Program-made: the position numbers and the translations under genes
Origin: Escherichia phage Mu
Reading direction: 5' to 3' (one strand)
Sequence record: NC_000929.1
Length of the DNA stretch: 36,717 nt
Shown here: one piece after another, positions 6,955 to 9,466 of the stretch
Layout: every line of letters starts with the position of its first letter
Position numbering within the stretch: the stretch's first letter is position 1
Notes under the pieces: generated by a model
Databases searched by the model: none
The model's input: only the letters and a program-made list of their open reading frames with translations
What the model was told of the DNA's origin: nothing

Positions 6955-7484
6955 TGTTTTTTAAAACGTCAAATCCCGCAGCACTGCTGGCGTGGGACCA
7001 GTTTATGGCGGACTGTCTGAAACTACGCGAAGAAGCCCGCCATCTTGATAAGGTTCTGGGTTGTGGTTGCCGGTCAGTATTCAGCACAAGTATTGGTGGG
7101 CGTTATTTTCATGGTGTGAACTTTCCGGGGAATGAGCGCCCTTTCTCGCGGGAGCTGTGGACCGTACAACGGCCCGCATCAGGTAACAGTTGCAGGCCCA
7201 GAACTTCGCGGATACCTGCTCATCTCAGGGAGCAGGCAAGAGAGCTGGCGAAAATATGGCAGGAGAATATTCCGGTCACTTACGCCCGCACAGACGCTCT
7301 TTTACCCGCACTGGGACTGGATTTCAGCGCAACAATATTCGGGCCGCTCCAGTGGTTCCGTGTTGGTGATGTGATTTACGTCATGACGGGGATGACACCC
7401 GCGCAAGGCCGCATGACTGAAATCCTTTCTGACGAATTTATCCGGGCGCAAAAACAGGCGGAGGTAAACAATGGAAAACAATAA
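6954..7484 (+). CDS. Early hypothetical protein (176 aa)
   Basis: ATG at 6954 overlaps the previous stop (TGATG) and is preceded by AGGAGGTGG; the ORF-track start at 6915 is upstream in the same frame. Confidence 0.65.
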   Translation: MFFKTSNPAALLAWDQFMADCLKLREEARHLDKVLGCGCRSVFSTSIGGRYFHGVNFPGNERPFSRELWTVQRPASGNSCRPRTSRIPAHLREQARELAKIWQENIPVTYARTDALLPALGLDFSATIFGPLQWFRVGDVIYVMTGMTPAQGRMTEILSDEFIRAQKQAEVNNGKQ

Positions 7485-7653
7485 AACATCGTATTCGTGG
7501 CTGGGGAAATTCACCACGGTGAAACAGGAATGCCCGACCTGCGGTAATGAATCCCCTGAATATCTGAAAGAGTGCCCTCATTGTGGCGGGCTGAAATGCA
7601 ACCACTGCGATATGGGCGATGACACAGCGTGCATGAATTGTGAAGGTGAATAA
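7471..7653 (+). CDS. Early small Cys-rich protein (60 aa, putative zinc ribbon)
   Basis: GGAGGT RBS; product has CPTCG ... CPHCG ... C-x2-C ... C-x2-C, i.e. four CxxC pairs. Confidence 0.65.
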   Translation: MENNKTSYSWLGKFTTVKQECPTCGNESPEYLKECPHCGGLKCNHCDMGDDTACMNCEGE

Positions 7654-7654
7654 T

Positions 7655-7957
7655 ATGAATAATGAAACTAAATTTACTCCCCTTAATATTGATAACGTCA
7701 TGGCTGAAAAAGGGATGCTGGAACGTGTTCGCGCTATCGTTGAATATGGTATTAAGCATAATCTCACCGCCAGAGAAGTCCGTGACATTATCAACCGCGA
7801 AATGAATCGTCTGGAAACAGTAGTGGCACTGCAAAATGAAACAGCCCGCGAGGAGTACATCCGCCGCAGGCTGGGGCTATCAGACCAGGATATTGTTACT
7901 GACGCTCATGTGTTTGAGGCTTTTGAGATCCGTCAGCATCTGGGTCTAACGAACTGA
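7655..7957 (+). CDS. Early hypothetical protein (100 aa)
   Basis: ATG at 7655 immediately after the previous stop (TAA 7651-7653) with a GAAGGTGAA RBS; the ORF-track start at 7640 is a GTG. Confidence 0.6.
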   Translation: MNNETKFTPLNIDNVMAEKGMLERVRAIVEYGIKHNLTAREVRDIINREMNRLETVVALQNETAREEYIRRRLGLSDQDIVTDAHVFEAFEIRQHLGLTN

Positions 7958-8162
7958 TAATGTCTTCCATGATCTTTGACAGTTGCAGTTTTTCGCGGCG
8001 GCTTGTTCTCATTGCAGGCGCATCTTTTAAAATCTCTGCTGAAGAGCTGAAAATGGCTTTGCCCTCTTCTGCGGTGATGATCGCCTTCTTCACCAGAAGG
8101 CGCACCAGTGCTGATGCAATCGCATAACCTGCAACATCATAAGGTTGTACATTATTTTCCAT
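7896..8162 (-). CDS. Candidate antisense small ORF (88 aa), status uncertain
   Basis: Minus-strand ATG at 8162 is preceded on that strand by AGAGG with ~5-nt spacing. About 68 codons lie in the otherwise ORF-free 275-bp gap between the last early ORF and gemA; the 3' end overlaps the plus-strand gene. I do not recall an annotated gene here. Confidence 0.25.
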   Translation of the reverse strand: MENNVQPYDVAGYAIASALVRLLVKKAIITAEEGKAIFSSSAEILKDAPAMRTSRREKLQLSKIMEDIISSLDPDADGSQKPQTHERQ

Positions 8163-8232
8163 AAAATCCTCTCTGATTGATGTGTAAATTCAGGCGGTGT
8201 TGCAGCACCGCCCCCTTTCCGGAGGTACGATC

Positions 8233-8784
8233 ATGAGTCGCACATCCCTGATTAAATTAATCCATGTCGCCCGTCGGGAGCTACAACTCGACGACGACAC
8301 TTACCGCGCTTTTCTGATGCAGAAAACGGGCAAAATCAGTTGCCGCGAGCTGACGGTCACGCAACTGGAACAGGTGCTCGGTGCCATGAAAGAACGCGGC
8401 TTTAAGAAGCAGAATAAATACCCCCGTCGCCGCTTTAAGGGGCATGTCACGCCCCGTGAGAAGGTGTATAAAATCTGGCAGCAGATGGCAGAAGACGGTT
8501 TTATTACCGATGGCGGTGATGTGGCGCTGGATAAATATGTTCAGCGCCTGACCGCGAAACGCAACGGCGGACAGGGCGTTTCCACACTGGCGTGGTGTCA
8601 TGGCGACACGCTGCTGACAGTCCTCGAAACACTCAAGCAGTGGCACATCCGCTGTATTCGTGAAGCCTTTTCCCGTCACGGGCTTCCATTGCCGGTCAGT
8701 CCGTCCGGTCGTGAACTGCGCGGCTATGATGCCATGACGGCGGCTTATGCCCATGCCAGAAAGACACGGAGGATGGCACAATGA
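8233..8784 (+). CDS. gemA: GemA, early host-modulating protein (183 aa)
   Basis: ATG at 8233 preceded by GGAGG; product MSRTSLIKLIHVARRELQLDDDTYRAFLMQKTG...; position just upstream of mor as in Mu. The ORF-track start at 8197 is a GTG inside a hairpin. Confidence 0.8.
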   Translation: MSRTSLIKLIHVARRELQLDDDTYRAFLMQKTGKISCRELTVTQLEQVLGAMKERGFKKQNKYPRRRFKGHVTPREKVYKIWQQMAEDGFITDGGDVALDKYVQRLTAKRNGGQGVSTLAWCHGDTLLTVLETLKQWHIRCIREAFSRHGLPLPVSPSGRELRGYDAMTAAYAHARKTRRMAQ

Positions 8785-9170
8785 CGGAAGATTTATTTGG
8801 TGATTTGCAGGATGACACCATCCTGGCACATCTTGACAATCCCGCCGAGGATACGTCACGCTTTCCGGCACTGCTGGCGGAGCTGAACGATTTACTGCGC
8901 GGGGAATTGTCCCGGCTGGGTGTTGATCCTGCCCATTCACTGGAGATTGTTGTGGCTATCTGTAAGCATCTGGGCGGCGGTCAGGTCTACATTCCACGCG
9001 GTCAGGCTCTGGACTCGCTGATTCGGGATTTGCGTATCTGGAATGATTTTAACGGTCGCAACGTCAGCGAACTGACCACCCGTTATGGTGTCACTTTCAA
9101 TACGGTGTACAAAGCCATTCGCCGGATGCGACGGCTGAAATACCGCCAGTACCAGCCCTCACTTCTGTAA
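8781..9170 (+). CDS. mor: Mor, activator of the middle promoter (129 aa)
   Basis: 129-aa ORF overlapping the gemA stop; clear paralog of C at 9963 (shared ...GG-Q-YIP-G ... FNGRN--EL ... Y ... IY-I). Confidence 0.9.
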   Translation: MTEDLFGDLQDDTILAHLDNPAEDTSRFPALLAELNDLLRGELSRLGVDPAHSLEIVVAICKHLGGGQVYIPRGQALDSLIRDLRIWNDFNGRNVSELTTRYGVTFNTVYKAIRRMRRLKYRQYQPSLL

Positions 9171-9176
9171 ACAGTA

Positions 9177-9200
9177 AAGCCGGTTAATCCGGCTTTTTTT
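9177..9200 (+). terminator. Rho-independent terminator ending the early operon
   Basis: Stem AAGCCGG / CCGGCTT with loop TTAAT, followed by a run of seven T, 7 nt after the mor stop codon. Confidence 0.8.
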
Positions 9201-9247
9201 ACGTCCTCAATATCCTGTGATGAATAACCGTACCGGGGAAAATCATC
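9201..9247 (+). promoter_or_regulatory. Probable middle promoter Pm region (Mor-dependent)
   Basis: Placed by inference: it lies between the early terminator and the first middle-operon ORF, and Mor is known to activate a middle promoter driving C. The Mor site may extend upstream into the terminator. Exact -10/-35 not resolved. Confidence 0.35.
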
Positions 9248-9466
9248 ATGGGTAAAGGCTGGAATGCATCCTTTCATCTTGGCAGACGTGAGCGGCTGCG
9301 TCAGGAGGTTTTGCACCGTGTCGCCGGTGGGCCACGTCCTGCGCCCCGCGACTATACCGGTCATGATGGCACCCACGGCAGTTATTACATGAAAGGCTGG
9401 CAGTCAGTTGATATGCCGGAAATTCTTCATCATTGCCTGCTTTACAGGGAGAAACATTATGTCTGA
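9248..9466 (+). CDS. Middle-operon hypothetical protein (72 aa)
   Basis: ORF with GGGGAAAA upstream of the ATG; first ORF after the early terminator. Confidence 0.55.
   Translation: MGKGWNASFHLGRRERLRQEVLHRVAGGPRPAPRDYTGHDGTHGSYYMKGWQSVDMPEILHHCLLYREKHYV

Follow-up and report, generated by a model that had tools for sequence, protein, structure and literature searches.

The locus raises a simple question: is the open reading frame that runs leftward through the spacer ahead of gemA, antisense to the early operon of phage Mu, a gene? The window analyzed was the whole stretch of 36,717 nucleotides from Escherichia phage Mu (NC_000929.1), and all coordinates refer to it unless another record is named. 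A sequence-only reading of this window had proposed a possible unannotated antisense gene at this place and had allowed that the frame might equally have arisen by chance. The analysis reported here indicates that the frame is very probably a real gene under selection, namely the already annotated gene 15 of Mu.

Location of the leftward frame

The list of open reading frames in the window contained the leftward frame as it had been described: 88 codons, beginning with ATG, at 7896..8162 on the minus strand. Its Shine-Dalgarno sequence (GAGAGG/AGAGG) occupies 8168..8173 on the same strand. The AGAGG portion, which is the complement of 8168-8172, lies 5 nt ahead of the start codon, and the minus-strand sequence upstream reads ...CAGAGAGGATTTT-ATG.

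The surrounding genes are all rightward (plus strand): Mup13 (7471-7653), Mup14 (7655-7957), gemA (8233-8784) and mor (8781-9170). The product of gemA matches the Pfam family GemA (E 3.8e-31). The leftward frame ends inside Mup14 (7655..7957), as had been noted, and the antisense overlap covers 7896-7957 on both strands. In these 62 nt, the last 20 codons of the leftward frame lie opposite the last codons of Mup14. The gap between Mup14 and gemA extends from 7958 to 8232 and is 275 bp long, in agreement with the earlier figure. The accompanying statement that the gap is devoid of plus-strand reading frames needs to be qualified; an ATG-initiated frame of 55 aa is present at 7960..8127, and what stands is that all three plus frames score negative for coding.

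The Mup13 product (60 aa) has four CxxC pairs and gave weak matches to zinc-ribbon and DnaJ-CXXCXGXG models. These features make zinc binding a probable property of this small protein.

Earlier records of gene 15

The description of the frame as unannotated did not hold. An exact-sequence look-up showed the protein to be the UniProt entry GP15_BPMU (“Uncharacterized protein gp15”), the sequence of which occurs on at least 1000 contigs, Salmonella among them. The protein (gp15, or Mup15) also matches phrog_8747 over its full length (residues 1-88 of 88, E 6.6e-60). In the RefSeq record of SfMu, gene 15 is ACQ86_gp16, on the minus strand; the gene is also annotated in the Yersinia phages vB_YpM_5 and Tongde, and it is called by PGAP in E. 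coli prophages (WP_000431116, WP_021578945). Four leftward ORFs have been described in SfMu, and the largest overlap, that of orfs 15 and 16, is 62 bp (PMC4406740). The prophage of E. coli W, LY180, KO11FL and S17-1 is 100% identical to Mu over 7655-8784. In the record of phage D108, gene 14 and gemA are given NP_050618 and NP_050620, respectively, as their Mu counterparts, and the intervening number, NP_050619, is not used. This omission fits gene 15 as a Mu entry without a D108 counterpart, and NP_050619 would then be Mup15.

A record of 1991, M64097 (“Bacteriophage Mu left end”), matches the window at 99.8% over 7400-8800 and lists a leftward “putative F-134” ORF (AAA32405, 134 aa) over gene 15. 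At window position 8192, M64097 has G and all other copies have A, and with the G an in-frame TGA upstream of gene 15 is lost. F-134 is longer than gene 15 because of the removal of this stop codon. Since every other copy has A, a sequencing error probably accounts for the G.

The public entries for Mu gp15 (GP15_BPMU, phrog_8747, ACQ86_gp16 of SfMu and the PGAP calls) are the same as the frame considered here in sequence, coordinates, strand and overlap; they state neither a function nor a family relationship and contain no data on expression. Because gene 15 is already catalogued, its recovery is a confirmation and no discovery. It has been part of the public Mu annotation for decades, and it has no importance as a discovery.

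Codon usage and selection

A codon log-odds score was trained on 25 long rightward Mu genes and was computed for gene 15 on the part outside Mup14 (7958-8162). The comparison with Mu genes that the sequence-only reading had proposed came out in favor of the gene: the frame of gene 15 scored +0.405 bits per codon and was the sole positive frame of the six. For comparison, the neighboring genes scored 0.463 (Mup14), 0.323 (mor) and 0.279 (gemA). When this score was used to rank every minus-strand ORF of the genome that starts with ATG and has 60 aa or more, gene 15 was first of 48. Ranks 2-4 were occupied by real minus-strand genes, identified with Pfam as the repressor (by its DNA-binding domain), a tail-fiber assembly protein and a tail-fiber C-terminal domain; both tail-fiber genes are located in the 33.5-35.1 kb region.

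Substitution patterns were compared at two depths of divergence. Between Mu and an E. coli relative with 52% identity (L017), pS was 0.52, pN was 0.29 and omega was 0.41 (Fisher p = 0.001). Between a Klebsiella-type member (L015) and the D108 type, omega was 0.18 (p = 5e-7). In the Mu-L017 pair, the 52% identity of gp15 is lower than that of GemA (81%) and Mup14 (71%), and gp15 thus evolves faster than either. Among copies of gene 15 that are near-identical (at least 96%), just 7 sites vary; 3 of the changes are synonymous and 4 are non-synonymous, which is too few to inform. One frameshifted allele (P0004) was encountered.

The gp15 family and its synteny

Word-based searches retrieved copies of gp15 that were at least 94% identical and nothing more distant. 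Mu gp15 and a 119-aa ORF of D108 both match phrog_32893 in the same register; a BLASTP comparison of the two was not significant, and the relationship is seen through profiles only. A HMMER profile that combined the Mu and D108 types was searched against 1.84 billion representatives, where it found relatives of 60-91 aa, down to ca. 20% identity, and retrieved 11 representatives at E <= 1e-3. A profile search of a 5.8-billion-protein set yielded about 24 clusters from Escherichia, Klebsiella, Citrobacter and Salmonella, with relatives of 79-119 aa; none of the clusters bears a name. The wider family was defined as phrog_8747, phrog_32893 and phrog_38610, and phrog_32893 was matched by 14 of the 15 family members. 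The N-terminal core (approximately residues 8-50) has the pattern F/Y-D-x-A-G-F/Y-x-L-x-G/S-x-L-x-x-x-L-V-x-K-G-V/I-I-x-x-x-E/D-A/G-x-x-I, and a second conserved helix is C-terminal to it. As judged from these sequences, the family is fast-evolving and is confined to Mu-type prophages of Enterobacteriaceae.

For the study of synteny, contigs were fetched for eight family clusters, and 15 loci had enough flanking sequence to be judged. A relative that is divergent from gemA was present in all 15, and the same position is taken in Mu, SfMu, vB_YpM_5, Tongde, D108 and Mu_3F6. The spacer between the relative and the gemA start measures 66-74 nt at the family loci (70 nt in Mu). Relative to the early operon, which extends from the transposase gene to mor, the family members are antisense, and they overlap the preceding early gene by 36-98 nt. 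In every family lineage, a purine-rich Shine-Dalgarno sequence (AAAGGAA, AGAGGAA or CAGGAGA) is situated 5-8 nt ahead of the ATG. Both the frame and its ribosome-binding site are therefore conserved across Mu-like prophages, a point that had been put forward as a check on the gene.

Two observations bear on the annotation of relatives. In the RefSeq record of D108 (NC_013594), the gap between gene 14 and gemA is unannotated and contains the 119-aa leftward ORF (L003 1994-2353, minus strand; approximately 7853-8212 of the record); this ORF (phrog_38610) is annotated in Mu_3F6. For P0035 (Citrobacter, L031 2001-2339) and P0039 (Salmonella), the starts given in the database (“MIVPP...” and “MSVPQERGG...”) are too far upstream. 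Overlong calls of this kind run through the spacer hairpin described below and through the antisense of the gemA ribosome-binding site, and the conserved start is an internal ATG.

Predicted features of the protein

A model of gp15 was built with AlphaFold2 from the 15-sequence family alignment. Helices were predicted at residues 8-25, 31-47 and 55-72, with pLDDT values of 86-92 over residues 10-40. The tail (residues 73-88) was predicted to be disordered, with pLDDT below 50, and corresponds to the residues encoded in the Mup14 overlap. Members of the family have pI values of 4.3-6.0; they are mostly acidic and not clearly membrane-spanning.

Scans of Mu gp15 and its relatives with Pfam, NCBIfam and PADLOC gave nothing above threshold; the PADLOC defense models matched neither Mu gp15 nor four relatives nor a 138-aa gene found at the same site elsewhere (see below). 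A sequence profile search of the PDB with gp15 returned noise only (E > 0.1), and when the AlphaFold2 model was compared with the PDB and BFVD by Foldseek, the only match was gp15 itself, in the form of the old 134-aa Mu entry. In these searches gp15 thus had no match to any defense, anti-defense or characterized family.

Sub-threshold matches to the SHOCT-like family PF22746 were obtained for five of the 15 family members (best 18.6 bits, against a threshold of 27), and Mu gp15 itself had no PF22746 match in Pfam. SHOCT is a short oligomerizing helical module. In these five members, the motif L-x-x-L-V-x-K-G-I-I-T-x-E-E, at the junction of helix 1, turn and helix 2, matches the PF22746 profile in the same register. 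A SHOCT-like relationship of the family is accordingly treated as a lead suggested by sequence, and not as membership.

A dispensable and exchangeable cassette

Comparison of related phages delimited a present/absent cassette of 223 bp at 7959..8181. It is bordered by a TGAT direct repeat and contains the Shine-Dalgarno sequence, the start codon and codons 1-68 of gene 15. The segment 7959-8181 is cleanly missing from the Yersinia phages vB_YpM_3 and vB_YpM_23 and from E. coli OZ040490, and this deletion of 223 bp brings the Mup14 stop codon beside the hairpin. In D108 and Mu_3F6, the cassette is swapped for a different one. FDAARGOS_1058 is without Mup14 and most of gene 15; in PhiR68_1 and others, unrelated rightward genes take the place of gene 15. 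The gene is absent from PhiR68_1 and also from the E. coli prophages L013, L014, L023 and L024. Phages such as vB_YpM_3 function without gene 15, which is therefore dispensable.

In the prophages of E. coli PEC422 and MIN10, a different leftward gene of 138 aa lies at the site of gene 15, 30 nt from gemA (L025 1053-1469 and L028 1054-1470, respectively, both minus strand), and the G+C-rich hairpin is not present. The PGAP label of this gene, DUF2513, was not reproduced by a Pfam scan (E <= 1e-3), and PADLOC assigned none. In more distant GemA-encoding phages (Vibrio, BcepMu-like), no leftward gene was found before gemA.

The GC content in Mu is 0.446 for the cassette, 0.553 for gemA and 0.455 for Mup14, the cassette being below gemA but close to its neighbor Mup14. 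Across lineages, the values are 0.37-0.48 for the cassette, which is similar to Mup14, and about 0.55 for gemA.

An extra rightward gene of 309 nt was observed in SfMu (L002 1756-2064), vB_YpM_5 (L008 1256-1564) and vB_YpM_3 (L005 1203-1511). Because this gene is inserted between the homologs of Mup13 and Mup14 in SfMu and the Yersinia phages, the early region is considered to be mosaic here.

The hairpin ahead of gemA

The inverted repeat GGCGGTG/CACCGCC, which the sequence-only reading had placed at 8194-8213, exists; its arms are at 8193-8199 and 8206-8212, one base to the left. This G+C-rich stem-loop of 7-8 bp (8193..8212, plus strand) is located in the 70-nt spacer, just ahead of the gemA Shine-Dalgarno sequence (GGAGG, 8221-8225) and start codon (ATG, 8233). 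As plus-strand RNA, it has a predicted folding energy of -14.8 kcal/mol (z = -2.8). In an alignment of 10 lineages, 100% of the cells pair, and compensatory double changes occur in three of the seven pairs; the compensated arms are GGCCGCGC/GCGTGGCC in L021 and GGCGGCT/AGCCGCC in L031. One of the pairs is a G.U, which is valid on the plus strand only.

The hairpin had been noted as lying just upstream of the leftward gene, but it is not specific to this gene: it is kept in vB_YpM_3, PhiR68_1, L013, L014, L023 and L024, all of which are without gene 15. No such hairpin exists in phages that carry the 138-aa gene, nor in those in which gemA and the gene ahead of it overlap. On the plus strand, a run of five to six T's follows the hairpin in some relatives (TCTTTTTT in L019, CATTTTTT in L032 and CTTTTT in PhiR68_1), whereas the tail in Mu is only CCCTTTCC, and the terminator scan did not list the Mu hairpin. 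A search of 7600-8500 against Rfam gave no meaningful match.

The hairpin was assigned to the rightward RNA because it persists without gene 15, because the G.U pair is possible on the plus strand only and because the T-runs are on that strand. From its sequence and position, it is probably part of the gemA leader in the rightward transcript, where it may serve as a partial terminator/attenuator or as a stabilizer. An operator for a dimeric protein and a 5' stem-loop of the gene 15 mRNA were also considered; the plus-strand G.U pair and T-runs favor the rightward RNA over both, though not decisively.

Signals for leftward transcription

A consensus sigma-70 scan of 7400-9400 gave no minus-strand promoter, and no minus-strand terminator was found after gene 15 in a scan of the same interval. 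With relaxed settings, the minus strand yielded weak candidates only, which were forced by the context of the gemA start. The sole recurring leftward candidate is a weak -10 element over the gemA start codon, and it is inseparable from coding constraint. A literature search found no RNA-seq or ribosome-profiling paper on Mu.

Discussion

Three alternatives to a selected protein-coding gene were weighed. The 88 codons could be accidental, an antisense of a non-coding spacer from which no protein is made. Such an accident would be in keeping with the failure to detect a promoter, with the 3 synonymous versus 4 non-synonymous changes among close relatives, with the last 20 codons being simply antisense through Mup14 and with the fact that gene 15 can be deleted. 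However, the codon score is positive in the frame of gene 15 only and exceeds that of every other minus-strand ORF, frames of 79-119 codons have been kept open at less than 25% identity with the core, the Shine-Dalgarno sequence and the position conserved, and dN/dS is significantly below 1. An accidental frame is therefore highly improbable; codon usage, a divergent protein family, strict synteny and dN/dS below 1 bear out a leftward protein-coding gene and effectively rule out chance, which had been offered as an equal alternative. It is hardly conceivable, too, that the gap matters as a control region for gemA on the plus strand (a dedicated promoter, an attenuator or both) and that gene 15 is incidental to it. 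A promoter-like sequence directed toward gemA (TTCTCA-16-TAAAAT, 8006-8033, plus strand) does lie inside gene 15, and the conserved hairpin just before the gemA Shine-Dalgarno sequence, with its T-run in some relatives, would suit a control region. Sites of this promoter-like kind, though, occur at chance frequency (2 found, 2.0 expected), and this one is within the cassette, which relatives either lack or have exchanged for another. The hairpin cannot explain the conservation of a frame of 80-120 codons because it covers only 20 nt.

The third alternative concedes the leftward orientation and makes the peptide secondary: leftward transcription over the end of Mup14, convergent with the Pe early transcript, would by interference or as an antisense RNA tune the early transcription that reaches gemA-mor and thereby the early-to-middle switch. 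Several regularities would be expected of such a role, i.e. the fixed place directly before gemA-mor, always antisense to the early operon; the invariable overlap (36-98 nt) with the 3' terminal part of the early gene upstream; a conserved structured element in the same spacer; and the presence there of a different leftward gene in other prophages, as though the product mattered less than the place and direction of the gene. Against it stand omega values of 0.2-0.4 with saturated synonymous sites. Because conservation is at the protein level, with synonymous sites saturated and omega in this range, the amino-acid sequence of gp15 itself appears to be what is selected. Furthermore, vB_YpM_3 and PhiR68_1 are viable without any leftward gene and have the same gemA-mor arrangement, and such a gene is lacking from GemA-encoding phages that are more distant. 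A role in cis or as RNA is thus considered improbable, and gene 15 as a selected protein-coding gene is retained as the reading of the locus.

What gp15 does is a separate matter. Because the protein matches no characterized family, its function was approached by position and analogy. Gene 15 is antisense to the Pe early transcript and so needs a separate promoter, which would lie to the right of the start codon. Transcription would run leftward from this putative promoter, and a promoter of its own would in turn make gene 15 most likely an independently expressed accessory gene of the “moron” type. Expression would be best when rightward early transcription from Pe is repressed, i.e. in the lysogen. 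As a small oligomerizing helical protein, gp15 might act by protein-protein contact rather than by binding DNA. This reading (an independently transcribed accessory gene, expressed in the lysogen, the product of which makes protein contacts) is put forward tentatively, as one possibility suggested by analogy. A bolder version, in which the family would be a lysogen or constitutive factor functionally tied to the gemA-mor junction, is regarded as unlikely. In this version, a small acidic oligomer, produced from a transcript that runs into the early operon, would time Mor production or guard the lysogen against superinfection. If it were true, leftward cargo genes of enterobacterial Mu-type prophages, including the D108-type and 138-aa genes, would have a previously unrecognized hotspot before gemA.

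Beyond the public entries, the present analysis adds that gene 15 is very probably real and selected, and it links to it the unannotated homolog in D108 and the relatives in Klebsiella, Citrobacter and Salmonella. It also adds that exchangeable leftward genes are repeatedly found at the site before gemA and that a structurally conserved hairpin is present in what is probably the gemA leader. These by-products are small, testable leads on Mu accessory genes or on early-to-middle regulation, not new kinds of biology.

Comparison with known systems

The nearest systems for comparison are within the family. The 119-aa ORF of D108 and Mu_3F6 (phrog_38610) and the relatives from Klebsiella, Citrobacter and Salmonella (phrog_32893) have the position and orientation of Mu gp15 beside gemA, and they share with it the helix-turn-helix core, the C-terminal helix, the Shine-Dalgarno sequence and the spacer hairpin. 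They differ from Mu gp15 in being only 13-25% identical to it and in having unrelated C-terminal tails. The D108 type, unlike Mu gp15, also has a very acidic N-terminal extension of 26 residues.

Outside the family, gene 15 can be compared with morons (e.g. HK97 gp15) and with the olg1/sie1 genes of Fc02, a transposable phage of Pseudomonas. Fc02 lysogens appear to transcribe genes that lie antisense to the early operon, the promoter having been identified just upstream, and one of these genes excludes superinfecting phages (PMC9936078). No promoter or terminator is identifiable at gene 15, in contrast to these systems, and the likeness drawn here is one of position and occurrence. Like morons and olg1/sie1, gene 15 is small and accessory, some close relatives having it and others not; like olg1/sie1, it belongs to a transposable phage and lies opposite in strand to the early operon, within the plastic part of the early region.
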